NCBI GenBank assembly: GCA_037137535.1
Contig: JBAXKC010000018.1
Coordinates: 1-55,010 of the forward strand
Direction: 5' to 3'
DNA: 55,010 nucleotides
From: a bacterium
Lineage (GTDB): Bacteria > Cyanobacteriota > Vampirovibrionia > Gastranaerophilales > JBAXKC01
Part shown: positions 4,190 through 49,433 of the stretch, piece by piece
Numbering within the stretch: the first letter of the stretch is position 1
Layout: each line of letters opens with the position of its first letter
Translations under genes and position numbers: made by a program
Notes under the pieces: generated by a model
Told to the model about the DNA's origin: nothing
The model's database searches: none
What the model saw: the letters and a program-made list of their open reading frames with translations, nothing else

Positions 4190-4204
4190 GTTTTATATAC
4201 CTTG

Positions 4205-5176: not shown

Positions 5177-5181
5177 TATAT

Positions 5182-6588: not shown

Positions 6589-6663
6589 GGTAATGCCTAC
6601 TTTTCTATATTAATGCCTATAATTAACAAATGTATTTTAATACAAAAATGCGACTCTGATAAA

Positions 6664-7894: not shown

Positions 7895-8002
7895 ATGGAA
7901 TTTTTCAGAAAACATAAAAAACTTATAATCACATTTGTTTTTTTTACATTTATGTTTTGGACTGTTGCACTAGGCATATTGCCTTTTATTTCTAAATTTT
8001 AG
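7895..8002 (+). CDS. 35-aa single-pass membrane small protein (not in ORF track)
   Basis: MEFFRKHKKLIITFVFFTFMFWTVALGILPFISKF*; GAGGG RBS at 7886-7890; stops 23 nt before the M23 gene. Confidence 0.65.
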   Translation: MEFFRKHKKLIITFVFFTFMFWTVALGILPFISKF

Positions 8003-8025
8003 CCAAATAATAAGTGAGAAGTTAG

Positions 8026-9207: not shown

Positions 9208-9300
9208 TAGACAACAATTTGTAAAGCTACTTCATATATTTTATTGACTTCGAGTATCTTGTTTAGAATAATAATGAATGAAGTCTTAAAAAAGGTTATT

Positions 9301-11109: not shown

Positions 11110-11144
11110 ATTATGACACTAGACATATTGAGGAAAATATACTT

Positions 11145-34514: not shown

Positions 34515-35984
34515 TCATTTTTTTATTAACTTATTTTTGTATAGGTTATCAAGATTTTGTCTTGATAAATCATAGTCGGGATCAATAGAAAGTGCTTTTT
34601 TATAGCAGTCTGCGGCCTGTTTATATTGACGTTTACTGCTATATGCTGCACCAAGATTATTATAAGCACTTATGTTTTTTGAATTTATTTCAATGGCTTT
34701 ATTGCAGTTAATTATAGCTGCATCATAATTACCAAGTGAAATATATACTGAAGCAAGATTACTATATGCTCTATCATCTTGGGTTATAGCCAATGCTTTA
34801 TTATAACTTTCAATAGCTTCTTTGTACAATCCTTTCCCTTTATAGGAATAGCCGCAGTTAATATAAGTAATCGCATTATTAGGATTTAGGGACAATGATT
34901 TTTTAAGATATTCTAAAGCCTTATCATATTCATTAAGTAAATTATAGCAACATCCTACATTTCCGTTAATTATTACATTATCAGGTGTTACTTCAAGAAT
35001 TTTTTTATAATAATCAAGAGCTGAGTTATAATTGCCTTTTGTGTAATAATCATTTGCGGTTTTTAAGTAATCATTAAGATCCTCTTGTGATGATGGATTA
35101 GGTAGTTGTTTTGCTTTAGTAACATAATTAACCGAATATATATCTTGAGAGCCTGAGTAGACTCTTGAGAGTGTGTTTATATCGCGTTGAGTGATTATTG
35201 TTCTTCCCGGAGTGTTTTGTTGATAACCGTTAGGTAATACTAAAGGAATATAACCGATAAAGTTTAAAGACCACGAATTAATTCCGCCTCTTTGAGCTCT
35301 TAGTTTTGGATACATAATATCTTCAATATTAGGGCTATGCCCTAATCCAATAGCATGTCCGATTTCATGAAGCAATATTTCTTCAAGCTCAGAAGGAAGA
35401 TACTTATTTTTGTTTAAAATCTCAATTTTACCTTTTTCGCTATTATTATTGCTGTATTTATAATTTGTTCTGCCTAACGGTGTTTCATTTGGATTTACGC
35501 TTGATAATCTATTAACCCACACAATATCGATATTACTGTTTTTATTATCTGATAATTCAAGAGGAAAAAATGATTTCCATTGATTAAGAGCATTTACAAC
35601 AGTCAGTCTATATTTTTCAGGAACATTTCCAATATAAACAGTTACAGGAAAATTCTTCCATTTAGGTATATTTTTATCGCAAGTTTCTGTGTAATAATTG
35701 CCGACATCAGGATTAGACAGAAAATTAAAAATAGGTTTTGTTGTAGTTTGCGGATTTAAACTGTTTTTAATATGGTTAATCCTGTTAGGAATACTGTCTT
35801 GATAAGTATTACCGTATAACGCTCTCTCAATAGTGTCAATTCTAGGCAATATAGCAGGATTATCAACTTTAATTCCCAGATTTTGTTCAATTTCGTCTAA
35901 ATCAGAAATTGGAATTACTTCTGAATACACAGCCTGTATATTTAACAAAAAAACTAAACATATAATAGTTAAAATTTTATACAT
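34515..35984 (-). CDS. exported matrixin-like (metzincin) metalloprotease with C-terminal TPR repeats
   Basis: signal peptide; HEIGHAIGLGHS; Met-turn DIMYP; about 5 TPRs (e.g. AYNNLGAAY..A..YKKAL..DP). Confidence 0.88.
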   Translation of the reverse strand: MYKILTIICLVFLLNIQAVYSEVIPISDLDEIEQNLGIKVDNPAILPRIDTIERALYGNTYQDSIPNRINHIKNSLNPQTTTKPIFNFLSNPDVGNYYTETCDKNIPKWKNFPVTVYIGNVPEKYRLTVVNALNQWKSFFPLELSDNKNSNIDIVWVNRLSSVNPNETPLGRTNYKYSNNNSEKGKIEILNKNKYLPSELEEILLHEIGHAIGLGHSPNIEDIMYPKLRAQRGGINSWSLNFIGYIPLVLPNGYQQNTPGRTIITQRDINTLSRVYSGSQDIYSVNYVTKAKQLPNPSSQEDLNDYLKTANDYYTKGNYNSALDYYKKILEVTPDNVIINGNVGCCYNLLNEYDKALEYLKKSLSLNPNNAITYINCGYSYKGKGLYKEAIESYNKALAITQDDRAYSNLASVYISLGNYDAAIINCNKAIEINSKNISAYNNLGAAYSSKRQYKQAADCYKKALSIDPDYDLSRQNLDNLYKNKLIKK

Positions 35985-36030: not shown

Positions 36031-36651
36031 TCAGACATTATTTATTTGCTGTTTTGCCACTAATCTATCGACTATTTCTTTTACATTTTCTTTAGTTAGT
36101 TTTTCATAAAGGATTTCTCTATTTTGAGCGATGGTTTCATCATCTAATAAAGAAAAATCTATTCTAGCTAATTCTTTTCTTATTTCTTCTTCAAATCTGT
36201 ATTTTAATATTTTAGCAGGATTTCCGCCTAGAATAGTATAATCGGGAACATTTTTTGTTACAACCGTTCCTGCTGCAATAATACAACCTTTTCCTATCGT
36301 AACTCCCGATAAAATAATACTGTTTAAACCGATCCAAACATCATCTTTGACGATAATAGGCCCTTTAGTTGCGGCTTCTTCCTTATATCCAAAGTTTTTA
36401 ACCAGAAAAGGGAAAGTTGAAAAGCCTTCATAAGGGTGATTTCCACCTAATAAAAAGGTAACTCCCGATGCTATTGAAACATAATTTCCTATGGTAAGCT
36501 TTTCTTGAGGATGTCCGAAAGTATGAACATCTAAAGGTCCATAAGTTTTCTTTCCTACACTAACTTTTGAAAGATCAAAAATTCTGGTTAAATAAGTTTC
36601 ATTATGAGCGTTCATTCTTCGCCATTGAGCTTGTAATTCATTTCCGTTCAT
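36031..36651 (-). CDS. CatB/Vat-related hexapeptide-repeat O-acetyltransferase
   Basis: LTIGNYVSIA, GGNH, STFPF, DDVWIG, GVTIGKGCIIAAG, GNPAK. Confidence 0.9.
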   Translation of the reverse strand: MNGNELQAQWRRMNAHNETYLTRIFDLSKVSVGKKTYGPLDVHTFGHPQEKLTIGNYVSIASGVTFLLGGNHPYEGFSTFPFLVKNFGYKEEAATKGPIIVKDDVWIGLNSIILSGVTIGKGCIIAAGTVVTKNVPDYTILGGNPAKILKYRFEEEIRKELARIDFSLLDDETIAQNREILYEKLTKENVKEIVDRLVAKQQINNV

Positions 36652-37582
36652 ATAAGTGATTTAAACCTCCAAGATCTATTTTTGATGAGGAATAATGAGA
36701 AATTAAATATTCCATTGCTTCATAAAAATACCAGTCATGTTTATAATCTTTCATATACTTGAAAAAACCTGTTTTTTCAAAGTTGTATTGATTATTAAAA
36801 TCAAAGTAATATGGAATAATATGCTTCAATAATATAAGTTGTTTTTCATTTTCATATATTGTTTTATTTAATAAGCCGCTATCTAAATATTCTTTATATA
36901 AAGACAGATAATTTTGCCCGAATACTTCTGCTATGTTATAACCGCCCTTGTTTGGTACGGTCATGCTTAAGAAATAAGCGGGATTATAGACAGCTGCTTT
37001 TTTTCCCGATGCGATAAGTCTTAATATAACATCAGTCTGAACTAATCTTAATTCATGTTTTCTTGAAAACTCAGTTAAATTATTAAAATCCTCTTTCCAA
37101 AGGCCAAAACCACCTATCCATGTGGAATAAAAAGACGCATAAGAAACAAATTCAGTTAAATTATTGCATAATTTCATTAGTTCTTGATGATTATTTTGAC
37201 CATTTAAAAAGAAAATTACAGGTTTTTCATTAATATTTGCTTTTACTATTTTAACCAGCTCGGCTAAACTTCCATTTTTGGTTAATAAAGTATCGTTTTG
37301 CAGTTTTAAAAAAGTTCCGTTGGCGAGAGCAAGTATATTTTCATAATTTTTATCTGCTCCCATATTAACTTCATTTCGATGATATTTTATTTTGTCAGCA
37401 AATAAATCAACATATTTTTTAACAACAGCTTGAGTTTCATCTTCGGAGCAGTTATCTGAAATAACAATTTCAATTTCGTCGGTTGTTAAAAATGCATTTT
37501 GAATTACAAGACTTTCAAGTATTTTATCCAAATACTTTGCCCTGTTATAGGTAGGAATGCATATTGACAATATTGGGGACAT
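36638..37582 (-). CDS. GT2 glycosyltransferase (abequosyltransferase WbaV-like)
   Basis: LSICIPTYNRA, ISDNCSEDET, NMGADKN; lies in a CDP-3,6-dideoxyhexose cluster; ATG 37582 after AAGGA. Confidence 0.85.
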   Translation of the reverse strand: MSPILSICIPTYNRAKYLDKILESLVIQNAFLTTDEIEIVISDNCSEDETQAVVKKYVDLFADKIKYHRNEVNMGADKNYENILALANGTFLKLQNDTLLTKNGSLAELVKIVKANINEKPVIFFLNGQNNHQELMKLCNNLTEFVSYASFYSTWIGGFGLWKEDFNNLTEFSRKHELRLVQTDVILRLIASGKKAAVYNPAYFLSMTVPNKGGYNIAEVFGQNYLSLYKEYLDSGLLNKTIYENEKQLILLKHIIPYYFDFNNQYNFEKTGFFKYMKDYKHDWYFYEAMEYLISHYSSSKIDLGGLNHLYERK

Positions 37583-37665
37583 TTTATTTTTCCTTATTAA
37601 ACTTATTTTAGTTTGCAAATTAGAGGTGGTTTTTCCCTATAAGATAAAGCAAGCGTTTAATTATG

Positions 37666-38706
37666 TTATAAAAAACTCAGTAAAGTTCTTTTAAATCCCT
37701 CATCTATCGTGGTTTCAGGTTTCCATCCGAGAGTTTTTATCTTGCTTATATCAGGGCAACACCTTACCAGATTGCTTTTTACATAAGTTCCTGACTGTAA
37801 ACTCTCATCTTTTATAACTTTTAGACCTTTTTCGGGAAATAAACCAGCTATTGTTTCAGCAAGTTCCATAATACTTGTTTCTTTATCAATGCTGACATTA
37901 TAGGCTTCACCGTTTTTGCCGTTTAAAAGGACTGTAAGAAAGCCTATTGTCGCATCAGCAATATAACAGAAGGCTCTTGTTGAGCTTCCGTCACTTTTCA
38001 TTATTATATTTCTGTTATGAACAATATCTGCTATAAAATCAGCAAAAACTCTGCCGTCATCAAGACTTATCCCAGGGCCATAGGTATGAAAAGGTCTTAC
38101 TATTTTTGCGGGGATATTATATTGATGATGCCAGGATACACATAAAGTTTCTCCTGCTTTTTTACTTTCAGCGTAGCATGATCTTACTGATAAAGGATTA
38201 ACATAACCGTAGTAAGTTTCTTTAGTTGGAATTAAGCTATCGTTCACTTCTCCGTAGACTTCTCCGCTGCTGAAAAACAGGAAACTTTTTACTTGTTTTT
38301 CTTTTGCTAGTTCTAATAAATTATTAGTGCCTAAAATATTAGCATTCATTGTGCCTACAGGATCAGAACCATAATATTTTGGGCTTGCCTGACTTGCTGC
38401 ATGAATTATAAAATCAACATTTTGTTCTAACTTAATTGGCTTACACACATCTTGAACTATAAACTCCAGATCGGCTCTGTTTTTATGATGGGAAAATATA
38501 GATAAAGCCTTCTCTTTATTTCTTACAAGAGCAATAACTTTTGTATTTCTATTTTGCTTATCGTTCAAGTATAAAAAGGTTTCAACTAAATAAGAAGGTA
38601 AAAATCCATTAGCACCAGAAATTAATATGGTAGCATTTTTAAACTTTTCCCATGCTAAATTTGAATTAAGAATATAATCTAAATCTTCTTTTATAATTTT
38701 ATGCAT
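37666..38706 (-). CDS. NAD-dependent epimerase/dehydratase (extended SDR), candidate side-chain reductase
   Basis: ISGANGFL, IHAASQASP, FSSGEVYG, YAESK (YxxxK), RPFHTYGP. Confidence 0.85.
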   Translation of the reverse strand: MHKIIKEDLDYILNSNLAWEKFKNATILISGANGFLPSYLVETFLYLNDKQNRNTKVIALVRNKEKALSIFSHHKNRADLEFIVQDVCKPIKLEQNVDFIIHAASQASPKYYGSDPVGTMNANILGTNNLLELAKEKQVKSFLFFSSGEVYGEVNDSLIPTKETYYGYVNPLSVRSCYAESKKAGETLCVSWHHQYNIPAKIVRPFHTYGPGISLDDGRVFADFIADIVHNRNIIMKSDGSSTRAFCYIADATIGFLTVLLNGKNGEAYNVSIDKETSIMELAETIAGLFPEKGLKVIKDESLQSGTYVKSNLVRCCPDISKIKTLGWKPETTIDEGFKRTLLSFL

Positions 38707-40501
38707 TGTTTTCGATTTCTTTAACAGGCTCTACAATCATTTCCTGATAAAATTCCTCTCTGGGCAAGAGTGGTGACATATCTTCTAACGGACTGGATAC
38801 CATTCTTCCGTCAGGCTTTCTGACTGATGCTACTCTCGGAGTAAAAGCCTGTAAAGGATCAAGCATTACTTCTATAACAGCAGGGCCGTCAAGCTCTAAC
38901 GCTTGTTTGATTTTTTCTCGAAGATCATCATGGTTAAATATTTGCAGATTTTGTAATCCATACGCATTTGCAATTTTAATTGTATCAGGGCAAGAAAGTC
39001 CGCTGCTTGGGTCTGAGCCTACTAAAAACCCGTCAAAATAAGCATTTTGAGTATGTTTAATACTGAGATAGCCATTATTATTAAATACAAAAAGTTTTAA
39101 AGGAAGATGATAGTGAACCATTGTTTGGAGTTCCTGAATATTTAACTGCAAACCACCGTCACCATGAACACAGACAGTTTGCCCTATATCTTTTGCCAGA
39201 CTTGCCCCTATTGCAGCAGGCAGTCCATATCCCATGGGGGAAAATCCTCCATTAGTAAATGCTTTTTGTCCTTCTTTAAGTTTAAAAGCAGTTGTATAGG
39301 AGTAAAAAGTAGCACCTTGGTCGGTAATAACGCTGTCATCTTTGCTCATTAGCTCAGATAAAACCTCAAAGAAATAATATGAATTAACATAATCTTTTTG
39401 ATTTTTTAATTCAGCTGTTACGACAGGATATTTTTCTCTCCAATGATGACATTTATCAATCCATTTTGAGTAATCACCGTTAAAATTAACCTCTAATTCT
39501 GTATTTAAAGCTGGAATGAAATTTTTTAAATTTGCTTTTACAGGTAAGTCAACATTAATTGTCGGATATTTAAAATAAGCCTCATCAAGGTTTATTACAA
39601 CCTTTTTAGCTTCTCTTGCAAATAAATTTGACTCATATCCAACGGACGAAAAACAAAGTCTACTACCCATGCTTATAACCAAATCAGCGTTCTGAACGGC
39701 AAAATTACCTGCTCTTTGTCCATACGTTCCGAATCTTCCCGCAAGAAGAGGATGAGAGTCATGTATTAAATCAAAAGCAATTTTTGTAGTAACAACAGGA
39801 ATATTATATTTTTCGATAAATTTAATGAATTTATCTTTCATTCCCGAAAGTTTAATGCCATGTCCTGCAATAATAACAGGTCTTTTAGCTTGATTAAGCA
39901 ATTCTTTTATTTGTTTTAGTTCAGAAATTTCAGTATTATCAACTTCTTTTTCAGGATAAAAACCTTTAAGCTCTTCGACTTCAATATTTTTAGATTGTAT
40001 ATCAATAGGTATATCTAGCCATACAGGACCTGGTCTGCCATTTTTAGCAAGATATGCAGCTTTTTCAAGGTGATAACGTATAGTTTTTTCATCTTTAACG
40101 GTAACAGCATATTTTGTAACGGACTCTATCATTTTAACTATATCGACTTCATGTACTCCACGCTGCCTAAGTCCTGTGTCTTCAATTAAAAATTTTGAAT
40201 TAGCTTGCCCTGAAATTACCATAAGAGGAATTGAATCATTCCATGCACAAAGGACACCTGTTAAGGTGTTTGTAGCCGCAGGGCCTGTTGTGGTAAGTGT
40301 TACGCCAAGATTTTCCGTAATTCTCTGATATCCTTCAGCTGCCATAATTGTGGCTTGCTCATGGTGATTACAGATGTATTTTATATCTTCCCTTCTTCCG
40401 AGAGAATCAATTAAAAACATGCCTCCACCGCCTGAAACCATAAAAACATGCTTTACATTTTGTTTTGCAATAAAATCTATGACGTAATCAGATAATCTCA
40501 T
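38699..40501 (-). CDS. thiamine-diphosphate-dependent enzyme (acetolactate synthase-like, YerE-like carboligase)
   Basis: HHEQ, TTGPAATN, GRPGPVWLDIP, MGYGLPAAIGA, ThDP motif GDGG..NN. Confidence 0.88.
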   Translation of the reverse strand: MRLSDYVIDFIAKQNVKHVFMVSGGGGMFLIDSLGRREDIKYICNHHEQATIMAAEGYQRITENLGVTLTTTGPAATNTLTGVLCAWNDSIPLMVISGQANSKFLIEDTGLRQRGVHEVDIVKMIESVTKYAVTVKDEKTIRYHLEKAAYLAKNGRPGPVWLDIPIDIQSKNIEVEELKGFYPEKEVDNTEISELKQIKELLNQAKRPVIIAGHGIKLSGMKDKFIKFIEKYNIPVVTTKIAFDLIHDSHPLLAGRFGTYGQRAGNFAVQNADLVISMGSRLCFSSVGYESNLFAREAKKVVINLDEAYFKYPTINVDLPVKANLKNFIPALNTELEVNFNGDYSKWIDKCHHWREKYPVVTAELKNQKDYVNSYYFFEVLSELMSKDDSVITDQGATFYSYTTAFKLKEGQKAFTNGGFSPMGYGLPAAIGASLAKDIGQTVCVHGDGGLQLNIQELQTMVHYHLPLKLFVFNNNGYLSIKHTQNAYFDGFLVGSDPSSGLSCPDTIKIANAYGLQNLQIFNHDDLREKIKQALELDGPAVIEVMLDPLQAFTPRVASVRKPDGRMVSSPLEDMSPLLPREEFYQEMIVEPVKEIENNA

Positions 40502-40506
40502 TTTTA

Positions 40507-41250
40507 TTATGTCCTTTTTTTAATATCAGAAAATCCTTCATATAACACTAAGGAATCAACTTTATACACAAGAAACTGTATTCCGAGCTGTTTAAAATAA
40601 TCAAGATCATCCCAATTATGAAAAAGACATCCTGCAATTTTTCCTGCTCTTTTAATTTCACTTACCGCATGTTCAAGTATTTCTTTAACTTTTATATTAT
40701 GAACCTCTCCGGGTATACCTAAATATGAAGAAATATCGTATGTTCCCACATAAACAAGGTCAAGCTGCGGATCATCAGCAATATCATAAATATTCTTTAT
40801 TCCGCTTTCGCCCTCTACGATTATCCCTGTTAAAACTCTTTTATTTTCAGATTCGGTATAATCCTTTTGATTTCTATATCCACCTGCTCTTGTATAGGGA
40901 GAAAATCCTCTTATTCCTGATGGTGGATATTTAATGTAAGAAATAGCCTTTTCTCTTTCCTCAACGCTGTCTATGTGAGGTACAATAATTCCGTCTATTC
41001 CAAGGTCTAATGCTCTTAATATTTCTGACTCTTCATTTTTAGAAACACGAATAACCGCTCTGCTTCCTTCCGCTTCAGCTGCCATCACCATTTTTTGAGC
41101 AGTAACGAAGTCAATAGTTCCATGTTCCATATCAATAATTACAAAATCTAATCCTGCTTTTGAAATAACATTAATTACTTCAGGAGAAGGTAAAAGACAC
41201 CATGTTCCGAAAACATTCTGATTTTCATTTAATTTTTCTTTTAAGTACAT
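40507..41250 (-). CDS. HpcH/HpaI-type class II pyruvate aldolase
   Basis: GLDFVIIDMEHG, RALDLG, IIVPH, YPPSGIRG, IVE, VGTYD. Confidence 0.88.
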   Translation of the reverse strand: MYLKEKLNENQNVFGTWCLLPSPEVINVISKAGLDFVIIDMEHGTIDFVTAQKMVMAAEAEGSRAVIRVSKNEESEILRALDLGIDGIIVPHIDSVEEREKAISYIKYPPSGIRGFSPYTRAGGYRNQKDYTESENKRVLTGIIVEGESGIKNIYDIADDPQLDLVYVGTYDISSYLGIPGEVHNIKVKEILEHAVSEIKRAGKIAGCLFHNWDDLDYFKQLGIQFLVYKVDSLVLYEGFSDIKKRT

Positions 41251-42983
41251 GTATTTAACTCCTCAGCATGAAAAAAATTCCTATAATATTTTTTATGTGT
41301 AGTTGGAGTAATGATAGAAAGTGGAACTGATTGTTCATGAAGAAATTCGCTCACTCTTTTAAGTTGAACAACTTGTTTTTCATACATATATGTCCAACTT
41401 TGCTTATCTTCAGGAATGTCCTGTTCATTATAGAAATAATTTAATTCATTTGTTTTTTCATTTACATATCCGTCCATTCCGGCTACGAATATTTCAGATG
41501 CGCCCATTTGATAAGCCATTAGAATAGCAGAAATCGAAACACTCGGATGCAGACAATTCTGAGAATATTCTGTAATACTTGGAATAGAAGGATCATCTAC
41601 TATTTCTACATCAAAATAACTGTATTTATTTGAATAATTTTTTTCTATTAATTCCTTGCCAAAAAAGGATGGAACTAAAAGCGTACTTTTTTCATTTATT
41701 GTTGAAAAATATTTAAGAAATCGTTTTTTACTGATAAAAATTTGATAATCAGGCACAAAGAAATCTCTCATATAATTCATTCCGATAGTAATGCAGTTTT
41801 CTTTTTTAATAAAATTATCAATATTATCTTTATGAGTTAAAATTGAAGGTCCACTTGCTATTATTAAAAACGGTTTTCCTTTATGTTTATTTGCAACGTC
41901 AAGATTATTATTTTTAAACGCATCTTGAGAAGGTATTATTTGAAATTTTTCAGTTATATTCTGACAAATAATTTGAGGTTCGGGAGATGGATTAAAAAAC
42001 ATTTCATTTAAAATTTCATTCATTTTATTTGAACTGTATGAAATAGGGCAATTTTCTTTTATTAAATCAGAAGCTGTCCAAATTTCATCTATTGTATAAA
42101 TATTTTTCTTAAATAAATCATCAACATAATAAGGATGAATATTTTTAAGTCCACCGATTAAAGATTGTAATTTATATCCCCAGTTTAGTTGTTTGAAGAT
42201 CTCCAAATAAAATCTTTCAATAACATCAATGTAAGCAACTGTGTTATATCTTGCATTTCCATTTTTTTCCAGGTAACCGAGTATAATTTCTATAGGAAGA
42301 TTTCCTGAGCCTCTGCCCATTCCAAAAATTGAAGCATCAATGAATGAAGCCCCTTCTTCAATAGCTCTTAATGAGTTCGCAAAAGCCATCTGTAAGTTAT
42401 TATGGGAATGAAATCCTATTTTTTCATATCCGACATCTTTAAGTTTTTTAACTAGAGCAGGAATATCAGTAGGAATAAAAGAACCAAAGCTGTCAGCAAA
42501 GTTAATAGATTCTAAAATATTTTTATTTTGCCAATTTTTTAAAATTTCAAAATGATCTGCTTCAAGCTCAGAGTAGGCCATTATATTAAGGAAAACTTCA
42601 TAACCCTTTTCTTTAAGCTCTTCAACTGTTTTTATTGCTTTTTCTATCTCATAAGGATATGCAGCAACTCTTACCGCCATTATAGGAGTATTAGTTTCTT
42701 TACATTCCTTGAATTGACTACTGTTACATTTTCCCGCATCAATCATAACGGTTAATTTGCATTTTTTTGATGCTTTAAAAATAGAAGTAAGAAATTCATC
42801 GGTACAATATGCAAAATTGCCCAGTCCTGTTATTGTTTCAGGGTATCTGTATCCTATTTCAAAATATTGAACTCCACTATTAAGTGCGGCAAAATACGAT
42901 GTTTTTACGCATAAAGGATCAAAATTCCATTTATTTAAATGCCCGCCATCACGAATAGTGCAATCTATTATTTTGATATCCAT
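41241..42983 (-). CDS. DRE-TIM (HMGL-like, 4-hydroxy-2-oxovalerate aldolase-like) domain fused to a DUF115/Maf/CstII-like domain
   Basis: DCTIRDGG, ADSFG, GFHSHNN, GMGRGSGN; C-terminal IIASGPS..TIGMN..GASEIFVAGMDG. Confidence 0.8.
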   Translation of the reverse strand: MDIKIIDCTIRDGGHLNKWNFDPLCVKTSYFAALNSGVQYFEIGYRYPETITGLGNFAYCTDEFLTSIFKASKKCKLTVMIDAGKCNSSQFKECKETNTPIMAVRVAAYPYEIEKAIKTVEELKEKGYEVFLNIMAYSELEADHFEILKNWQNKNILESINFADSFGSFIPTDIPALVKKLKDVGYEKIGFHSHNNLQMAFANSLRAIEEGASFIDASIFGMGRGSGNLPIEIILGYLEKNGNARYNTVAYIDVIERFYLEIFKQLNWGYKLQSLIGGLKNIHPYYVDDLFKKNIYTIDEIWTASDLIKENCPISYSSNKMNEILNEMFFNPSPEPQIICQNITEKFQIIPSQDAFKNNNLDVANKHKGKPFLIIASGPSILTHKDNIDNFIKKENCITIGMNYMRDFFVPDYQIFISKKRFLKYFSTINEKSTLLVPSFFGKELIEKNYSNKYSYFDVEIVDDPSIPSITEYSQNCLHPSVSISAILMAYQMGASEIFVAGMDGYVNEKTNELNYFYNEQDIPEDKQSWTYMYEKQVVQLKRVSEFLHEQSVPLSIITPTTHKKYYRNFFHAEELNTCT

Positions 42984-43744
42984 AAACCCTCTTTAATATT
43001 TATATCTCCCAAACTAGTTGAAATATATGGTGAATATTCTAATAATTCATCATAATCTATCTGTCCTGTCGTTATTCCGATTCCTGCTTTTAGATCAGCA
43101 TTTTTAGCCATAATAAGATCCATCGGGGCATCGCCTATGCAAATAGTTTCATTATTATTTGCTTTTAACAGTTCCATTGCTTTTAAAGCCGGTATTCCTG
43201 TATGTTTAGGCTCAACCGTTGATTCTTTTCCTATTATTAAATCAAAATAATTATCAATTTTTAGATATTTTAATGTTTCTTCAGTATTTTTGACTGAATC
43301 TGAAGTAACAACAGCTATTTTAACAGATTTTGCTTTAATTGCTTTAAGTAAAGGTATCACATCAGGCAATAATTCAATATAATCAAAAATTTCATTAAGA
43401 AATTCATTATGTTCTCTGACAAAAATCTCATCAATATCATTATGTGATACTTGAATGTTTAGTTTTAATAAATAATCTGCAAGAATTTTAATAACCTGCT
43501 CTCTATTTACAAGTGCAATAGGTCCTTCTTTTATAAGTTTCCATTTATCTGTGCAAAGACCCATTGTTAAACAAATATCAGAAAATAGAGCTTTATCAAG
43601 GTGGAATTTGGAAATTAAAGCAAGAGCTCTTCTTTCAATAATTCTGCCCCAATATTTATGACTGTCAATTAACGTTCCGTCCTTGTCAAATAATACGGCA
43701 TTAATTGAATCTATGCTCCAATGATTTGTCGAAATATTTATCAT
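42968..43744 (-). CDS. HAD-superfamily phosphatase
   Basis: LFDKDGTL (DxD), VVTS, PK, IGDAPMD. Confidence 0.88.
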   Translation of the reverse strand: MINISTNHWSIDSINAVLFDKDGTLIDSHKYWGRIIERRALALISKFHLDKALFSDICLTMGLCTDKWKLIKEGPIALVNREQVIKILADYLLKLNIQVSHNDIDEIFVREHNEFLNEIFDYIELLPDVIPLLKAIKAKSVKIAVVTSDSVKNTEETLKYLKIDNYFDLIIGKESTVEPKHTGIPALKAMELLKANNNETICIGDAPMDLIMAKNADLKAGIGITTGQIDYDELLEYSPYISTSLGDINIKEGLWISK

Positions 43745-43747
43745 TAG

Positions 43748-44725
43748 CTACCCCAAATATTTTAAGGACTCATTCACCAGCCAGAGAGCTTTCTCTAATG
43801 CTTTTTCAAAAACAGCTTGATTTTCAAGAAAATCCTCTCTGTCTATCTGTTCTCTTACAATTTTACGGGCAAATGAACCTATTGCAACGCCATTTGCATT
43901 AATTTCGCATTGTTTTGCAAATTCAGTTGTTTTTGAATTTGTACCGCCTGAAAGAAGAATATAAACAGGTAATTCAGCATTTTGTACTATTTCAGCTGTT
44001 GCTACCGTCTGTAATGTGGTTTTATAAGTATCGTCAGAACCGCTCATAGGAGCGCCATCAGCTTGAACAATTGTTGTATATGGCTTTCTGTTACTTATTA
44101 ACCTTTTTACTCTATCAATCAGCTGAATATTGCCAAGCTTTGAACGGTCAATGCAAACGCTTAATAAACCATCAAAGGAATTATTAAGGATTTCCCATTT
44201 TTCTTCTACTTCTTGTTCATTTGTACCAAGTGCATGCAGTTCTATTGCGCTTAATCCTTTTTTAACAAGTGGAGGTATAACAATCTCAAGTGGCTTATTT
44301 TCCGAATAAGAGGTAATGGCTTTTGACGGACAAGTTTCAATACATTTTCCACATCCGATACAACGCACTTTATTGACTATAAATTTATCATTATTACTGA
44401 TAGCATTTTGAGGACAATCATCTAAACATATAGAGCATGAAACGCATTTGTCATTATCAATTAATGCCTTGCTGACATGAGGATCGCCTTTTATTCCAAC
44501 GCTCACGCAAAAGTGATAATTATGAATTTCATCAGGGGCGATAACCCTGTTTAATCCTCTGTATGCCGCATCAACAATTTCTTCTTTAGCGCAAAGATCA
44601 AAAAATTTAACTCCTGCTTTTGCATAAAGTGCAACTAATTTTTCAATTTCTATTGCATCTTCATTTCCTGCTCCACAGACGAGTTTAAAACACTTTTTAC
44701 TTGCTAAAAGCTCATTTAATTTCAT
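43748..44725 (-). CDS. ldpA: LdpA-family 2x[4Fe-4S] protein
   Basis: FKLVCGAG, DPH, CVSCSICLDDCP, CIGCGKCIETCP, AIELH, QADGAPMSG, LSGGTN, GVAIGSFARK match recalled cyanobacterial LdpA motifs; GAGGT RBS. Confidence 0.8.
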   Translation of the reverse strand: MKLNELLASKKCFKLVCGAGNEDAIEIEKLVALYAKAGVKFFDLCAKEEIVDAAYRGLNRVIAPDEIHNYHFCVSVGIKGDPHVSKALIDNDKCVSCSICLDDCPQNAISNNDKFIVNKVRCIGCGKCIETCPSKAITSYSENKPLEIVIPPLVKKGLSAIELHALGTNEQEVEEKWEILNNSFDGLLSVCIDRSKLGNIQLIDRVKRLISNRKPYTTIVQADGAPMSGSDDTYKTTLQTVATAEIVQNAELPVYILLSGGTNSKTTEFAKQCEINANGVAIGSFARKIVREQIDREDFLENQAVFEKALEKALWLVNESLKYLG

Positions 44726-44831
44726 TTATACCTCGTTATTATCAAAAGGTCGGCTTTATTCTTGATTATTCGGTGTACTCTTAATTTTATTTATAACCAA
44801 TAATAAGAATTATATCATATACTTACTGTCT

Positions 44832-46214
44832 TTAATCCTTATAGGTCGCATCTTTACTGCAAATAAAACTTTCTATTGTCTTTATAATTAAGTTCAGATG
44901 TTTTTCTTCTAATCCGGGCCAGACTCCTATCCAGAAAGTGCTATTCATAACAGTATCAGTATTTGGAAGTAATTTATAATGCTCTTCCGTTAACTCTTTT
45001 GTGTTCAATATTCCAGAGTTTTTAATTCTGATTTTTATATTATTTTCCACATAAGCAGGCTGTCTTAGCATATTTCCCGCAAAAAGTTGTCTTGTACCTA
45101 TATTGTTTGATTCTAGGAATTTAACCAGTTCAATTTTATCAAATTTTTTATTTTCTTTAACGGTAAGAGTAAAGCCAAACCAAGATGGCTCTGATTTTTC
45201 AGGATGAGAAGGCAAGAGAAGATATTTCTCAAATGGTTTTAAACCATCATATAATATTTTGAAATTGTCATTTCTAAGCTTTATAAAACCTTGCAGCTTT
45301 TTAAGTTGAGCTAAACCGCAAGCAGCCTGCCAATCAGTTATTTTTAGATTGTAGCCCAAATGAGAATAAGTATATTTATGGTCATAACCCATAGGTAAAT
45401 TACCTAATTGATAAGAAAATCGTTTTTTACATGTGTCGTCTTTACCAGGTGGACACCAACAATCACGTCCCCAATCTCTAAATGACATTATTATCTTATA
45501 TAAATTAGGGTCATTAGTGACTAAAGCGCCTCCCTCTCCCATTGTTATATGGTGAGCGGGATAAAAGCTGAATGTGCCGATATGTCCGTGAGTACCTGTA
45601 AATTTACCGTTATATTTTGCACCAAGTGCATCACAGCTGTCTTCAATCAGCCATAAATTATATTTTTCACATAATTCTTTTATTTTATCTAATTCAAAAA
45701 CATTGCCGAGAGTATGAGCTACAAAAACAGCTTTAGTCTTGTCTGTTATCGCTTCTTCAATTTGAGAAAAATCAATATTATAAGTAGAAAGCTCTACATC
45801 AACAAAGACAGGAATTAATCCGTTTTGAATAATTGGATTAATTGTTGTAGGAAAGCCTGCACCTACTGTTATTATTTCATCACCTGCTTTTAAAGCCTTT
45901 TCACCAAGTTTTTGTGAGGTTAACGCAGAAATAGCAAGTAAATTTGCAGATGAGCCTGAATTTGTCGTTAAAGCATATTTAGTTCCTAAAAATTTTGCAA
46001 ATTCTTTTTCAAATTTATCATTAAAACGTCCTGTCGTGAGCCACATATCAAGACTTGCGTCTATCATGTTTAAAAGCTCCTGTTCATCAAGGACTTTACC
46101 CGATGCAGGGATATATTTTAATTCTTTTTTGCATCCGTAAACTACGCTGTAATATAGTTTTGCTGTTAATTTAACTGTATTGCGAAGTAATTTTTCAACA
46201 ATTTCGGATTTCAT
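44832..46214 (-). CDS. rfbH: CDP-4-keto-6-deoxyglucose 3-dehydrase (E1/DdhC)
   Basis: NSGSSANL, SFYPAHHITMGEGG (His at the usual PLP-Lys position), RDWGRDCWCPPGKDDTC Fe-S ligands, YDHKYTYSHLGYNLK; ATGA overlap with the rfbG stop. Confidence 0.93.
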   Translation of the reverse strand: MKSEIVEKLLRNTVKLTAKLYYSVVYGCKKELKYIPASGKVLDEQELLNMIDASLDMWLTTGRFNDKFEKEFAKFLGTKYALTTNSGSSANLLAISALTSQKLGEKALKAGDEIITVGAGFPTTINPIIQNGLIPVFVDVELSTYNIDFSQIEEAITDKTKAVFVAHTLGNVFELDKIKELCEKYNLWLIEDSCDALGAKYNGKFTGTHGHIGTFSFYPAHHITMGEGGALVTNDPNLYKIIMSFRDWGRDCWCPPGKDDTCKKRFSYQLGNLPMGYDHKYTYSHLGYNLKITDWQAACGLAQLKKLQGFIKLRNDNFKILYDGLKPFEKYLLLPSHPEKSEPSWFGFTLTVKENKKFDKIELVKFLESNNIGTRQLFAGNMLRQPAYVENNIKIRIKNSGILNTKELTEEHYKLLPNTDTVMNSTFWIGVWPGLEEKHLNLIIKTIESFICSKDATYKD

Positions 46215-47332
46215 TTTAAATTTTCCCCACTCCACGATATATTTTGACTTTGAGCTGTTGAAACATAATTTTTTATTTGATTATAAGTATAATTTTCTAA
46301 ATCGTTATTTCCCGAATAAAATTCTTTATACCAGTCAACGGTTTCTTTAATAGCCTCATCAGCTTTATAAACAGGTTTCCAATCAAGATAAGTCATTGCT
46401 TTGCTTATGTCTAATTTTAATAAATTTGCTTCGTGTAATTCTTGAGCGCCTGTAATGTTTAAATTTCCGCCACCCCAATGTTTGATAGTTTTTTCGACTA
46501 CTTTTTCTACTGTCAGGACAGAATCGTCATAAGGACCAAAATTCCAGCCCGAAGAGTATTTTATAGGATTTTCTATAAGTTTTTCAGCCAATAGAAGATA
46601 ACCTGACAATGGCTCAAGGACGTGTTGCCATGGTCTTGTAGCTTTTGGACTTCTGATTTGTATAGTTTCATTGTTTGAAAGTGATCTTATGCAGTCGGGA
46701 ATAAGTCTGTCTTCTGCCCAATCACCGCCACCTATGACATTACCCGCTCTTCCCGAAGCTAAAGCCATATTATGAGTTTGCTCAAAGTCTTTAGGATTGA
46801 AAAAAGAGTTTCTGTAGGAAGAAGTTAAAAGCTCGGCGATACCTTTGCTTGAGCTGTAAGGGTCGTATCCGCCCATCGGGTCAATTTCTCTGTAACCGTA
46901 AATATATTCTTTATTTTCATAGCATTTATCGCTTGTTACGTTAACAACAGCTCGAACGCAGTCATTTGCTCTTACTGCTTCAAGAACATTTAAAGTTCCC
47001 ATTATATTTGTTTCATAGGTAGTTAAAGGATCTTTATAAGAAAGCCTTACCAATGGTTGAGCTGCTAAATGAAACACAATTTCAGGATTATATTGTTTAA
47101 TAACTTTTTTTAAATGCTCGGCATTTCTTACATCGCCAATTATATGAGTTAATTTTTTATTTAATTGAAGTTTATTAAACATTGACGGGGTTGTATTAGG
47201 TTCTAAGGAATATCCGATAACCTCAGCACCCATCATTTCAAGCCATAAAGAAAGCCAACTGCCTTTAAATCCTGTGTGGCCTGTGACTAAAACTTTTTTA
47301 TTTCTATAAAAATCAGAAAAAGTGTTTTTCAT
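46211..47332 (-). CDS. rfbG: CDP-glucose 4,6-dehydratase
   Basis: VTGHTGFKGSWL, HLAAQPLVR, TSDKCYEN, DPYSSSK, RAGNVIGGGDW, RPWQHVLEPL. Confidence 0.96.
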   Translation of the reverse strand: MKNTFSDFYRNKKVLVTGHTGFKGSWLSLWLEMMGAEVIGYSLEPNTTPSMFNKLQLNKKLTHIIGDVRNAEHLKKVIKQYNPEIVFHLAAQPLVRLSYKDPLTTYETNIMGTLNVLEAVRANDCVRAVVNVTSDKCYENKEYIYGYREIDPMGGYDPYSSSKGIAELLTSSYRNSFFNPKDFEQTHNMALASGRAGNVIGGGDWAEDRLIPDCIRSLSNNETIQIRSPKATRPWQHVLEPLSGYLLLAEKLIENPIKYSSGWNFGPYDDSVLTVEKVVEKTIKHWGGGNLNITGAQELHEANLLKLDISKAMTYLDWKPVYKADEAIKETVDWYKEFYSGNNDLENYTYNQIKNYVSTAQSQNISWSGENLK

Positions 47333-47334
47333 AA

Positions 47335-48108
47335 TTACTCCCATATTTTCCATGGAGCATTTCCGTCTTTCCATAATTTTTCCAGCTCAACTTTTTCTCT
47401 TAAAGTGTCCATTGGTTGCCAAAACCCATTATGTCTATAAGCATATAAATTATTTTCTTCCGCCAGTTTTTCGAGTGGTTCTTTTTCCCAAATTGTAGAA
47501 TCACCGTCTATATAATTAAATATTTCAGGTTCAAGCACAAAGAATCCGCCATTTACCCATGAACCGTCACCTGCAGGTTTTTCCATAAATGAAGATACGC
47601 TGTTGTCTTCTTGAATATTTAACGAGCCAAATCTTCCTTTTGGAATTACAGAAGTTAAAGTGGCAAGTTTTTTGCTTTCTTTGTGGGCTTTTATTGTTTC
47701 GGTAATATTAACATTGCTAAGCCCATCACCATAAGTTAAAAGGAAAGTTTCATTTCCTATATAATCTTGTACTCTTTTTAGTCTTCCGCCTGTCATGGTA
47801 TTAACTCCCGTATCAACAAGAGTTACTTTCCAAGGTTCAGCAACATTTTTGTGAATTTCTACAGAATTATTAATTAAATTTACTGTTATGTCTGATTGGT
47901 GCATATAATAATTTGTGAAGTATTCTTTTATAACATATCCTTTGTATCCAAGTAGGATGATAAAATCATTTAAACCATAATGAGAGTAAAGTTTCATTAT
48001 ATGCCATAATATAGGTTTTCCACCTATTTCAATCATAGGTTTAGGCTTTATATCAGTTTCTTCGCTTAATCTTGTCCCAAATCCACCAGCTAATAATACT
48101 GTTTTCAT
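47335..48108 (-). CDS. rfbF: glucose-1-phosphate cytidylyltransferase
   Basis: LAGGFGTRLSEET..PKPM, TMTGGRLKR, TYGDG, NGGFFV, FWQPMDTLR, APWKIW. Confidence 0.96.
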   Translation of the reverse strand: MKTVLLAGGFGTRLSEETDIKPKPMIEIGGKPILWHIMKLYSHYGLNDFIILLGYKGYVIKEYFTNYYMHQSDITVNLINNSVEIHKNVAEPWKVTLVDTGVNTMTGGRLKRVQDYIGNETFLLTYGDGLSNVNITETIKAHKESKKLATLTSVIPKGRFGSLNIQEDNSVSSFMEKPAGDGSWVNGGFFVLEPEIFNYIDGDSTIWEKEPLEKLAEENNLYAYRHNGFWQPMDTLREKVELEKLWKDGNAPWKIWE

Positions 48109-48275
48109 CTTTATTATCTCAATTCACTAAAACCAGACATTGTTTTAATAATAACTTAAAACTAATTAAATTGTACAACATATTGCAGATTATTCGCATT
48201 TGGATTATATGCTTTTTATACCGCTCTTTTAATGCTAGTATCAATGGGTATGTATAATTTATAAAGTCCTTAAAG

Positions 48276-49433
48276 GTGAAAAATATGGAATCAATGATTT
48301 TTTCAGGTGGATTATTTGTTCTGATTATGGCATTGTTGCCTTCGGTCGCTTTTTTTTGTTTAGAGGCGGTTTGTTTCAGAGACAGACTTATACGTGCATC
48401 ATTAACCTTCATTTTTGTTATATCTATATTCCTTAGTCAATTCTTATTATCTAATGGATTCCTAATACCTGGAATTTTTCTTTTTAGTTATATTATTTTC
48501 TGGATTACAATTAGCTATAAATGTAATAGTGCACTTCCAATTGGTGATTTTAAATCTGCTTATAAAATTACAAAAAAATATTCTTTTTTATATGCTGGTT
48601 ATTTTTCAATTTTATTAATAAATATTCTTGAATCTTTAGCTATTGATGTTACTGATGAAGAAAGAGATAAAAAACTTTTCGATAAATATATAGTGAATTC
48701 AGATGAACAGACCTTAGCTTATCTGTCCGTATTAATATTTTATAAGCCCTTTGTAACAAACTATTTTATTGCTTGGTTTGAAGCTCAGATTGACCAAAAT
48801 AAAAGTTGTGAATTAAAAAAATATTATCCTATTTATATGAGATCACTTGGTATTAATCATAAATATGAAGAAATGATTTTATTTTATAAATCAATAGAGC
48901 AAGATTTTATAAATACTAAAAGCGATGTTAAAATATGTAGCACATGCTTATTTTACTTGTTTAATTTTTTAGGAAAAATAAACTTATCCAATATATATTT
49001 CGAAAAAGCATTTTGCAACACATCTGATATGGTAAAATTAAGTTTTATTGCAAGAGTAAAATTTAATGCGGGTGAAACTGAAGAGGCTTATAACGATTTG
49101 CAGGAGTTGGAAAAGAAACCTAATAGCAAATATATAGCATACAGAGTAAAACATTGGTTTGAAACAAGTCGAATTGTATCTGAAATTGAATTTTCTCCTG
49201 AAATAGCACAATCTCTTGAAGAAATTGAAAAGAGGGCAACATTAAATAGTTCTTCTATTGCACCTTTTATGAATGAAAAAAGCTTGGATTCAAGTTTAAT
49301 TTCTGATGGAAACATAAAATCAGAAATTAATATTATTCTTAAAATCATTCTAATTCTTATAGTAATAGCTACATTATTATATGAAACTGCTTTATTTTTA
49401 GGTATTGTTCCTAATTATTTTAACAATATATAA
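48276..49433 (+). CDS. hypothetical membrane protein with helical soluble region
   Basis: 385-aa ORF; 3-4 N-terminal and 1 C-terminal hydrophobic segments; no family motif; start may be ATG 48285. Confidence 0.55.
   Translation: MKNMESMIFSGGLFVLIMALLPSVAFFCLEAVCFRDRLIRASLTFIFVISIFLSQFLLSNGFLIPGIFLFSYIIFWITISYKCNSALPIGDFKSAYKITKKYSFLYAGYFSILLINILESLAIDVTDEERDKKLFDKYIVNSDEQTLAYLSVLIFYKPFVTNYFIAWFEAQIDQNKSCELKKYYPIYMRSLGINHKYEEMILFYKSIEQDFINTKSDVKICSTCLFYLFNFLGKINLSNIYFEKAFCNTSDMVKLSFIARVKFNAGETEEAYNDLQELEKKPNSKYIAYRVKHWFETSRIVSEIEFSPEIAQSLEEIEKRATLNSSSIAPFMNEKSLDSSLISDGNIKSEINIILKIILILIVIATLLYETALFLGIVPNYFNNI

Follow-up and report, generated by a model that had tools for sequence, protein, structure and literature searches.

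The window examined here is a stretch of 55,010 nucleotides (nt), contig JBAXKC010000018.1 of assembly GCA_037137535.1, from an uncultured Melainabacteria (Gastranaerophilales-like) bacterium, a non-photosynthetic relative of the cyanobacteria. This placement of the host rests on the leucyl-tRNA synthetase encoded in the window, which shares 73-76% identity with proteins listed under Candidatus Gastranaerophilales or Melainabacteria. The minus strand of the window carries, from position 48108 down to 36031, an array of eleven open reading frames (ORFs) that combines genes for a CDP-activated dideoxy sugar with two aldolases, a carboligase dependent on thiamin diphosphate (ThDP) and a set of accessory proteins. 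This array, treated here as an operon, had been listed in an earlier note on the same DNA, the gene list and coordinates of which were correct: the ORF list of the window holds eleven minus-strand ORFs that match them exactly in position and agree in family. Families were assigned by Pfam scans of the window (19 ORFs at E ≤ 1e-3 and 22 ORFs at E ≤ 1e-6), and NCBIfam matches were judged by their curated cut-offs. The genes are listed in the order of transcription, the sixth of them, a DRE-TIM::DUF115 fusion, as two domains.

47335..48108, minus strand: RfbF (rfbF/ddhA), glucose-1-phosphate cytidylyltransferase, 257 amino acids (aa); TIGR02623 equivalog, 438.5 bits against a cut-off of 300.25, full length
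46211..47374, minus strand: RfbG (rfbG/ddhB), CDP-glucose 4,6-dehydratase, longest ORF 387 aa; TIGR02622 equivalog, 523.7 bits against a cut-off of 278
44832..46235, minus strand: RfbH/E1 (rfbH/ddhC), CDP-4-keto-6-deoxyglucose 3-dehydrase dependent on pyridoxamine phosphate (PMP) and Fe-S, GTG ORF of 467 aa; NF011936, 697.8 bits against a cut-off of 423
43748..44725, minus strand: LdpA-like protein, 325 aa, a TIM barrel into which a 2x[4Fe-4S] ferredoxin domain is inserted; LdpA_C PF12617 75.3 bits, LdpA_Fe-S-bd PF25160 30.7 bits, Fer4 matches
42968..43744, minus strand: HAD-IA phosphatase, 258 aa; PF00702 96.8 bits, PF13419 94.9 bits
42024..42983, minus strand: DRE-TIM (DmpG/BphI-like) pyruvate aldolase domain of the fusion, residues 1-320; PF00682 81 bits
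41241..42023, minus strand: MptE-like/DUF115 domain of the fusion, residues 321-580 and stop codon, nucleotide-binding fold; PF01973 37.7 bits against a gathering score of 34.6, a narrow margin
40507..41250, minus strand: HpcH/HpaI class II pyruvate aldolase, 247 aa; PF03328 96.2 bits
38699..40501, minus strand: YerE-like ThDP-dependent carboligase, 600 aa, presumed to branch the sugar at C4; TPP_enzyme_N, _M and _C all present
37666..38706, minus strand: extended short-chain dehydrogenase/reductase (SDR), 346 aa, presumed YerF-like enzyme for reduction of the side-chain ketone; PF01370 (Epimerase) 156.8 bits, no NCBIfam model above its cut-off
36638..37618, minus strand: GT2 glycosyltransferase, TTG ORF of 326 aa; PF00535 66 bits
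36031..36651, minus strand: hexapeptide-repeat acyltransferase, 206 aa, presumed sugar O-acetyltransferase; PF00132 (Hexapep) 43.4 bits

When the longest ORFs are taken, seven of the junctions are overlaps of 8-40 nt or spacings of 3-5 nt. The larger gaps are 106 nt between rfbH and the LdpA-like gene and 47 nt between the SDR and GT2 genes, and the latter precedes a GT2 ORF whose TTG start is probably set too far upstream, an ATG 12 codons inward being the likelier one. Between 33500 and 50000, in this DNA of 30% GC, promoter-like sites number 96 against 84.5 +/- 8.0 in shuffled sequence and terminator-like sites 6 against 7.1 +/- 3.0, and the ends of the operon are not set by them.

The first three genes encode Ep, Eod and E1 of the CDP-3,6-dideoxyhexose (ddh/asc/rfb) pathway, each with an equivalog model above its cut-off. 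For rfbG the true start probably lies some 10-20 codons downstream, judging from the TIGR02622 alignment, which begins at residue 22, and for rfbH it probably lies a few codons in. RfbH aligns with the solved Yersinia E1 dehydrase (3bcx/3bb8) at 3.4e-169 and has in common with it the YPAHHITMGEGG stretch and a CxC...C motif, which we take to hold the active-site His and the cluster ligands. The [2Fe-2S] flavoprotein reductase E3 (DdhD/AscD) is not represented by any FAD_binding_6, NAD_binding_1 or Fer2-type match among the window ORFs, and a tblastn search of the window with an E3-like protein from a related locus (L001, see below) gave no match. E3 could be encoded elsewhere in the host genome. 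Since E1 homologues work with general cellular reductases, the missing E3 is no block to the pathway. Neither a flippase nor a polymerase was found in the 55-kb window at the thresholds used, and from this, together with the lack of an E3/AscD-type reductase there, follows that the term "self-contained", by which the pathway had earlier been described, is too strong.

The carboligase has its best match among solved structures in JanthE (8rph; 4.1e-140, 471 bits, over residues 3-589). Lower scores are obtained with 5ahk, presumably the Pseudomonas protegens YerE homologue (1.7e-75, 258 bits), with the best structure of an acetohydroxyacid synthase (AHAS; 3.5e-67, 230 bits) and with the best glyoxylate carboligase (173 bits). 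Its cofactor motif is the canonical GDG...N, and JanthE has CDG at the same place in the 8rph alignment. The AHAS equivalog TIGR00118 scores 366 bits against a cut-off of 538, other AHAS models are far under theirs, and no gene for an AHAS small regulatory subunit lies beside the ThDP gene, which has rfbF/G/H upstream and the SDR gene directly downstream in the same operon. Relatives in the databases are many, at 57-66% identity, and bear generic names only. On these sequence comparisons, for which JanthE and 5ahk served as the YerE-like references, the enzyme groups with the YerE-like sugar-branching carboligases and not with AHAS, and the predicted activity is decarboxylation of a 2-oxo acid and addition to a ketone. 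JanthE itself (Janthinobacterium sp. HH01; 8rph, 8rpi and 8rpj) is YerE-like and broad in its choice of 2-oxo acid donors, which extend from pyruvate to 4-methyl-2-oxovalerate and 4-hydroxy-2-oxovalerate, while its natural substrates are given as unknown (PMC12188165).

Among the remaining enzymes, the HpcH aldolase scores 146 and 138 bits with the HpaI and GarL models, below their cut-offs, and finds GarL (4tv5, 4.5e-31), then HpaI and YfaU, as its relatives in the PDB. The acyltransferase stays below the cut-offs of the Vat/CatB-type model (119 bits, cut-off 300) and of WbbJ (74.5 bits, cut-off 243), and the best NCBIfam matches of the HAD protein, PpaX and phosphoglycolate phosphatase, are all below cut-off. 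In a database protein of 742 aa, P0237, only part of an HpcH aldolase, its C-terminal half (42% identity to residues 105-245 of the window protein), is joined in frame to a ThDP enzyme of the same family as ours; its use as a Rosetta-stone fusion of the two activities was set aside because the case stands alone and may be an artefact of gene calling.

The fusion protein (580 aa, 41241-42983, minus strand) is HMGL-like over residues 3-242 and MptE-like/DUF115 over residues 361-504. The earlier note had called it an aldolase fusion; the fusion is real, and the partner, which that note did not name, is the MptE-like/DUF115 domain. The DRE-TIM domain matches a Bacteroides "putative aldolase" (3dxi) at 2.2e-45 and the 4-hydroxy-2-oxovalerate aldolases 8ih7, 4lrs and 1nvm at 4e-18 to 5.5e-15, with alignment of the DxTxRDGxH and HxH motifs. 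These motifs, the second of which we take to provide metal ligands, are invariant in 23 members of the family (alignment A1). The scores are nevertheless below the curated aldolase cut-offs (113 against 229 for NF006049 and 102 against 286 for TIGR03217), so that the domain, as judged from its sequence, is DmpG/BphI-like in its catalytic motifs, yet not an equivalog. A Claisen-type synthase, such as isopropylmalate synthase or homocitrate synthase, was considered for this domain and dropped, because aldolases score better and the last residue of the motif is His, as it is in DmpG. The Pfam scan of the operon found no acylating aldehyde dehydrogenase of the DmpF/BphJ/ErwJ type.

For the DUF115 domain an AlphaFold2 (AF2) model with a pLDDT of 82 was obtained from 15 sequences. 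Its Foldseek matches are SteA (1.5e-5) and the archaeal pterin pyrophosphokinase HPPK of M. jannaschii (8sd5, 2.4e-5), and, more weakly at about 1e-3, sialyltransferases and the Maf glycosyltransferase 5mu5, with template-modelling (TM) scores of 0.36-0.47. Its Atlas neighbours are MptE-like proteins, including GT2+MptE and MptE+WaaZ_KDO_III architectures. To judge from the model, a kinase function of DUF115 would fit the presence of the HAD phosphatase, and binding of a cytidine nucleotide or of an ulosonate is equally open. At one related locus (L072, 9206-9961, plus strand) a stand-alone MptE-like/DUF115 gene (251 aa, 2.2e-13) stands directly before the aldolase gene, that is, as the fusion split into two genes in reverse order.

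The LdpA-like protein gave an AF2 model of pLDDT 93 from a 34-sequence alignment, with the ferredoxin insert placed after the third barrel strand. In Foldseek the barrel is matched by TIM barrels that bind phosphate and by aldolases, at 9-13% identity; thiamin-phosphate synthase, the alpha subunit of tryptophan synthase and sugar-bisphosphate aldolases of classes I and II are found, with target-normalised TM scores of 0.55-0.64 and an identity of 7-13% among the matches listed, and in the Atlas the protein sits with cyanobacterial and plant LdpA clusters at TM 0.87-0.92. The name ldpA, which it had been given before, thus holds for the fold and not for the equivalog, since NCBI model NF045992 scores 149.7 bits against a cut-off of 450. 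In the alignment of LdpA-like proteins (A2) eight Cys in two CxxCxxCxxxC motifs are invariant, as are an SGGTN motif with a later Gly, and the residues K14, D43, E162, H164, C191 and D223 at the ends of barrel strands. SGGTN and the later Gly look to us like a candidate phosphate-binding motif, and this, together with the HAD phosphatase, would hint at a phosphorylated intermediate. A predicted complex of the full fusion (A1) with the LdpA-like protein (A2) scored 0.00, which was counted neither for nor against binding.

To see these genes in a wider context, consider the relatives of the fusion. The family is large: of 7998 candidates scored, 765 proteins reach E ≤ 1e-3; the best non-self match is 63% identical, and the names are generic. 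A scan of species-representative genomes with the 23-member alignment A1 gave at least 599 candidate stretches, at least 586 of which were confirmed as fusion relatives. The best 80 of these confirmed stretches, taken with as much as 10 kb of sequence to either side, make up 79 loci, which were searched with the operon proteins of the window and with six proteins from the loci themselves (tblastn, coverage ≥ 40%, E ≤ 1e-5).

The ThDP enzyme occurs in nine of the 79 loci (L001, L006-L011, L013 and L014), and always just downstream of the fusion. These nine contain the LdpA-like protein in eight cases, the HAD in eight, HpcH in five and an SDR at ≥ 50% identity in six. The core order LdpA-HAD-fusion-(HpcH)-ThDP-(SDR) is kept in eight of the nine, spread over at least six phyla, which is more than chance. 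GT2 homologues follow the SDR in L008 (38%) and L009 (27%), and L008 likewise closes with a hexapeptide protein. In a quick maximum-likelihood tree of the fusions (59 of 80 rows; those under 480 aa, 21 in number, were left out), the window, the nine ThDP loci and three loci that are short downstream form one clade with an SH-aLRT of 100, which lies within the other fusions on a stem of 1.01 changes per site. Its members come from Melainabacteria, Elusimicrobiota, Actinomycetota, Planctomycetota, Omnitrophota, Bacteroidota and two lineages of the candidate phyla radiation (CPR), and wherever there is enough downstream sequence, in nine loci out of nine, the fusion of this clade adjoins a ThDP enzyme; the close relatives L002-L005 have at most 2 kb of sequence downstream. 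Two database proteins, P0114 (a fusion homologue, 51%) and P0167 (a ThDP homologue, 62%), carry Clostridium botulinum as their source name, and the cassette seems to be present in at least one cultured organism.

From the comparison of the 79 loci the LdpA-like protein, the HAD, the fusion and often HpcH emerge as one conserved module. All four genes are found together in 20 loci, five with the ThDP enzyme and 15 without it. Of the 79 loci, 35 contain the LdpA-like protein; in 34 of these it stands no more than 3 kb from the aldolase, and 31 of the 35 have no E1 at ≥ 45% identity; conversely, E1 is found without the LdpA-like protein in L001, L004 and L037. Because it tracks the aldolase and not E1, the LdpA-like protein is assigned to the side-chain module, and its earlier placement in the slot of the E1 reductase is not supported. 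In four Melainabacteria-type genomes (L022, L039, L035 and L049) an LdpA-like gene stands directly before a DRE-TIM aldolase without DUF115, as a two-gene unit. The neighbours of such pairs are housekeeping genes, for example those for spermidine synthase, a beta-lactamase-family protein, ClpB and rhamnose genes, and not glycan clusters.

What the module makes is suggested by the enzyme that stands next to it when the ThDP enzyme does not. A relative of a cytidylyltransferase is found near the aldolase in 35 of the 79 loci, and no locus contains both this protein and the ThDP enzyme. The Pfam family CTP_transf_3 (PF02348) was confirmed in six loci (L029, L053 and L018 with E of 1e-38 to 8e-40, as well as L076, L060 and L064); it was not recovered in L072, where the choice of ORFs missed the cytidylyltransferase. 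We take PF02348 to be the family of the CMP-Kdo, CMP-sialic, CMP-pseudaminic and CMP-legionaminic acid synthetases, the substrates of which are 2-ulosonic acids. In the nearer loci of this kind the order is fusion, LdpA-like, HAD, HpcH, cytidylyltransferase, and further on come a protein of about 600 aa with a weak GT-B-like C-terminus, a methyltransferase, CDP-glucose genes and an ordinary DegT aminotransferase, with no E1. In the archaeal locus L037 a single ORF of 584 aa (9980-11734, plus strand) joins an HMGL-like part (residues 9-239) to CTP_transf_3 (residues 348-562). Before it, at 3574-9977, lie rfbF, rfbG, an SDR, a split transketolase (N and pyr/C parts), rfbH and a HAD, and this locus may be another dideoxy-sugar branching route, via a transketolase-type ThDP enzyme.

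When two consumers are mutually exclusive, and one of them acts on 2-ulosonic acids and the other on 2-oxo acids, the module is expected to deliver one kind of product to both. The sequence evidence suggests that this product is a keto acid of the 3-deoxy-2-ulosonic type, which here would be the donor of the branch. A CMP ester at the anomeric C-2 hydroxyl further needs an acid that closes to a ring, and from this would follow that the acid has probably at least six carbons and the branch in the window at least five. For the C10-C12 sugar named in the earlier note the sequence gives no support as to length. A 2-oxo or ulosonic acid as donor fits a branch longer than the C2 unit of yersiniose.

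On this basis we consider it fairly probable that the operon makes a CDP-activated 3,6-dideoxyhexose with a long hydroxylated side chain at C-4, of the yersiniose/erwiniose/caryophyllose class. RfbF would make CDP-glucose and RfbG convert it to CDP-4-keto-6-deoxyglucose, from which E1, with an electron donor other than an operon-encoded E3, would take off the 3-OH to give CDP-4-keto-3,6-dideoxyglucose; these three steps have support at the level of the families. The LdpA-like protein, the HAD, the fusion and HpcH may then together produce a polyhydroxy 4-hydroxy-2-oxo acid from pyruvate and a probably phosphorylated aldehyde. The YerE/JanthE-like ThDP enzyme would decarboxylate this acid and join the resulting acyl-anion equivalent to the CDP sugar at its C-4 ketone, the SDR would reduce the new ketone of the side chain in the role of YerF, and the sugar would finally be transferred by GT2 and O-acylated by the hexapeptide enzyme. 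The roles of the LdpA-like protein and DUF115, and the identity of the donor, are inferred. More tentatively, and at somewhat less than even chances, the module may be a PEP (phosphoenolpyruvate)-independent and previously undescribed route to 3-deoxy-2-ulosonic acids, the product being CMP-activated in many phyla and decarboxylated by a ThDP enzyme for C-branching in one derived clade, with the LdpA-like protein as a partner of the aldolase that acts on a phosphorylated substrate.

The general scheme has precedent. Steitz et al. (2022) proposed, and in part demonstrated, a unifying sequence in which the 4-hydroxy-2-oxo acid supplied by an aldolase is added to CDP-4-keto-3,6-dideoxyglucose by a YerE-like enzyme, after which a YerF-like enzyme reduces the product (PMC9306805). 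Erwiniose is accounted for by ErwI, a BphI-type aldolase, with ErwJ, ErwE and ErwF, where ErwE refuses pyruvate, and caryophyllose by MMAR_2331, of the HpcH type in the aldolase/citrate-lyase family, with MMAR_2332; gastriose and a sugar of R. palustris follow the same pattern (PMC9306805). Aurantose is added in a 2025 review (PMC12247030). An aldolase, a ThDP enzyme, a reductase and genes for a deoxy-keto sugar in one cluster make up an acyl-branched sugar cluster as Steitz et al. understand it, and here the aldolase, the ThDP enzyme, the SDR and the deoxy-keto-sugar genes stand in one operon. The earlier reading of the locus as one for a branched sugar therefore stands in outline, with its JanthE-like ThDP enzyme, ddhA/B/C, SDR and a module of keto-acid type, and is not new, as the scheme is that of PMC9306805. 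While the concept of the pathway is already published, the set of helper enzymes that builds the side chain is undescribed in the literature searched. That literature, which left out Krug et al. 2024 (Angew e202403535) and Lanza et al. 2024 (Angew e202404045), contained no donor-building module of this kind, no coupling of it to CMP activation and no link between the LdpA family and pyruvate aldolases; the cassette may already be listed in one of the two papers left out.

The erwiniose cluster of Pectobacterium atrosepticum, compared by its published description and not by sequence, resembles the window in its ddh genes, DRE-TIM aldolase, YerE-like ThDP enzyme, NAD(P)H reductase and glycosyltransferase. 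It has the acetaldehyde dehydrogenase ErwJ, which the window lacks, whereas the window has in addition DUF115 on the aldolase, the LdpA-like protein, the HAD and the second (HpcH) aldolase. The caryophyllose genes of Mycobacterium marinum (MMAR_2331, MMAR_2332 and the glycosyltransferase MMAR_2333) and the gastriose genes of M. gastri (MygI, MygE, MygF) share with the window an HpcH/citrate-lyase-type aldolase beside a YerE-like enzyme and a glycosyltransferase, and for these sugars, too, a long polyhydroxy branch has been proposed to come from a keto acid made by the aldolase (PMC9306805); the DRE-TIM-DUF115 fusion, the LdpA-like protein, the HAD and the Melainabacteria host set the window apart from them. 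With the pathway to yersiniose A in Yersinia pseudotuberculosis (DdhA-D, YerE, YerF) the window has the first three enzymes and the logic of ThDP branching and reduction in common, but it lacks DdhD/E3, has the extra module genes, probably uses a donor other than pyruvate, and its ThDP enzyme is nearer to JanthE, its best solved relative despite the difference between CDG and GDG motifs, than to 5ahk.

The inferred logic of the module also resembles that of the CMP-ulosonic acid pathways (KdsA-KdsC-KdsB and NeuB-phosphatase-NeuA), in which a condensing enzyme, a HAD phosphatase and activation by a PF02348 enzyme follow each other. Here, however, a DRE-TIM pyruvate aldolase stands for the PEP-dependent KdsA or NeuB, and in the window the ThDP enzyme has the place of the cytidylyltransferase. 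With the DmpG/DmpF and BphI/BphJ pairs the window shares aligned catalytic motifs and a tightly linked gene for a redox partner, which in those pairs is an acylating aldehyde dehydrogenase and in the window the LdpA-like Fe-S TIM barrel, a candidate partner by gene linkage. To our knowledge the LdpA family is known only as a cyanobacterial clock-associated redox protein. The protein in the window agrees with cyanobacterial LdpA, the redox protein of the circadian clock, in domain set and predicted fold, and differs from it by its score below the equivalog cut-off, its position beside an aldolase in glycan operons, its occurrence in non-photosynthetic lineages and a context in which no clock genes were seen.

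Several observations weigh against the pathway proposed here. The nearest solved relative of the SDR is UDP-glucuronate decarboxylase (2e-44). When only the seven ThDP loci with full 10-kb flanks are counted, rfbF/G/H are present in five and not in L007 and L008. HpcH is missing from four of the nine ThDP loci, so that the earlier proposal of a donor built by two aldolases, both of which are present in the window, does not extend to a fixed requirement for both. L001 is without the LdpA-like protein and has a different HAD, and the fusion of L003 (60% and 48% identity to the two domains) has no partner in 10 kb upstream and 2 kb downstream. The Foldseek matches of the LdpA-like protein and DUF115 are remote (TM 0.36-0.64, identity 8-16%) and speak for a fold but not for a function. 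In distant loci such as L076 a NeuB synthase lies near the aldolase and the cytidylyltransferase, which may there serve the product of NeuB or some other acid. Finally, the acceptance of pyruvate by JanthE (PMC12188165) makes a plain C2 branch possible. Such a branch, of the yersiniose type, would be made from pyruvate and reduced by the SDR, while the module would serve a separate acidic sugar or a substituent of the same glycan. It would agree with the donor of the closest solved relative and with the preference of YpYerE for pyruvate (PMC12247030), and also with the occurrence of all four module genes without the ThDP enzyme in at least 15 loci. It would, however, leave the keto acid without a visible consumer, as no cytidylyltransferase of the kind described is found in the window or in the nine ThDP loci (0/9), and it does not account for the ThDP-linked fusions being a clade of their own on a long stem, nor for the ThDP gene following directly after the module; ErwE is moreover a precedent for a donor fed by an aldolase (PMC9306805). 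We regard the C2 branch as unlikely.

The order of events could also be the reverse, with an acetyl branch from pyruvate added first and then lengthened on the CDP sugar by one or both aldolases, DUF115 holding the cytidine nucleotide. That the DUF115 model resembles folds that bind cytidine nucleotides (about 1e-3 for Maf and for the sialyltransferases, whose structures contain CMP, CDP or CTP), and that MptE+WaaZ_KDO_III is found among its Atlas neighbours, are in line with this order; yet the same fusion occurs in at least 35 loci without the ThDP enzyme and mostly without E1. Aldolases of the DmpG type use pyruvate as the nucleophile and aldehydes as acceptors, and are not known to act on ketone side chains. 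Steitz et al. named this order as a tested alternative, and the rejection of pyruvate by ErwE argues against it for erwiniose (PMC9306805). For the window it appears distinctly unlikely. A further possibility, partly compatible with the long-branch pathway, is that the LdpA-like protein is the missing E3, which passes electrons to E1 and stands outside side-chain synthesis. No E3/AscD-type protein is found in the window or in the flanks scanned for L010, L013 and L014, three loci that do have the LdpA-like protein; L001, the sole ThDP locus without it, has a NAD_binding_1 protein directly after rfbH, the only such E3-like protein among the loci scanned; and in the window the LdpA-like gene comes after rfbH. 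Against this stand the linkage counts given above (E1 lacking in 31 of 35 LdpA-like loci, the aldolase within 3 kb in 34 of 35), the pairing with an aldolase-only gene in housekeeping contexts, and L004 and L037, which have E1 with neither the LdpA-like protein nor E3 in the scanned flanks. The TIM barrel with its conserved barrel-end residues, as modelled, also suggests an enzyme more than a mere electron carrier, and the E3 role is rated as rather unlikely. There is least to be said for the ThDP enzyme being an AHAS or an unrelated carboligase, in which case the SDR would finish an ordinary 3,6-dideoxyhexose of the abequose or paratose kind. Relatives are publicly named "acetolactate synthase large subunit" and AHAS models reach E-values down to 1e-109, but every such model is under its cut-off (the best at 366 against 538), the JanthE score is double that of any AHAS, no gene for a small regulatory subunit lies alongside, and the linkage to sugar genes and module is kept across phyla. 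A true AHAS had been named in the earlier note as a result that would refute its reading; with 471 bits for JanthE against 230 for AHAS the outcome was negative, and this alternative is extremely improbable.

Outside the operon the window contains the following genes of possible relevance.

34515-35984, minus strand: TPR/matrixin-like protein, 489 aa (Peptidase_M10 region and five TPR repeats), not a sugar gene, next downstream of the operon
49784-55009, plus strand: giant RTX-repeat ORF of at least 1742 aa that runs off the end of the window; ten nonapeptide-repeat stretches, HemolysinCabind 4.1e-77, HCBP_related domain
3203-7407, minus strand: second polysaccharide gene group, with a Bac_transf priming transferase, a tyrosine-kinase-like P-loop ATPase, an NAD-dependent epimerase and an Acyl_transf_3 membrane acyltransferase
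15781-16605, plus strand: DAHP_synth_1 family protein, 274 aa, the size of the Kdo-8-phosphate synthase KdsA; 6.8e-76

Priming and export, for which the operon has no genes of its own, could be provided by the second gene group some 29 kb away, and the KdsA-sized protein suggests a Kdo-containing outer membrane in the host lineage. The RTX ORF, divergent from the sugar operon, probably encodes a secreted or surface repeat protein. In L035, at 2083-3115, separate matrixin-like and TPR genes adjoin the LdpA-like/aldolase pair, and the appearance of such genes there and near the operon may be coincidence or a relic of common ancestry. No Pfam or NCBIfam family was found, at the thresholds used, for the ORFs at 48276-49433 (plus strand, 385 aa), 48119-48412 (minus strand, 97 aa), 30655-32418 (minus strand, 587 aa) and 9244-11109 (plus strand, 621 aa); the first two overlap just upstream of rfbF, so that probably no more than one of them is a real gene.

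Long-branched deoxy sugars (erwiniose, caryophyllose, gastriose, aurantose and the R. palustris sugar) are rare surface determinants, the side-chain precursors of which are mostly unknown. The cassette described here offers a defined donor-building module of four genes that is open to reconstitution, and the module is widespread, with its at least 586 confirmed fusion relatives in species genomes. If it is true that one module feeds both CMP activation and ThDP-dependent branching, then two strategies of glycan building would be linked, branched sugars would become predictable in uncultured phyla (Melainabacteria, CPR, Omnitrophota and Elusimicrobiota), and new pairs of aldolase and ThDP enzyme would be at hand to make chiral tertiary alcohols, a stated interest of the groups that work on YerE-like enzymes. 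The module may, in addition, open a way into the biochemistry of the LdpA family, for which it would, if the assignment is true, be the first enzymatic context.

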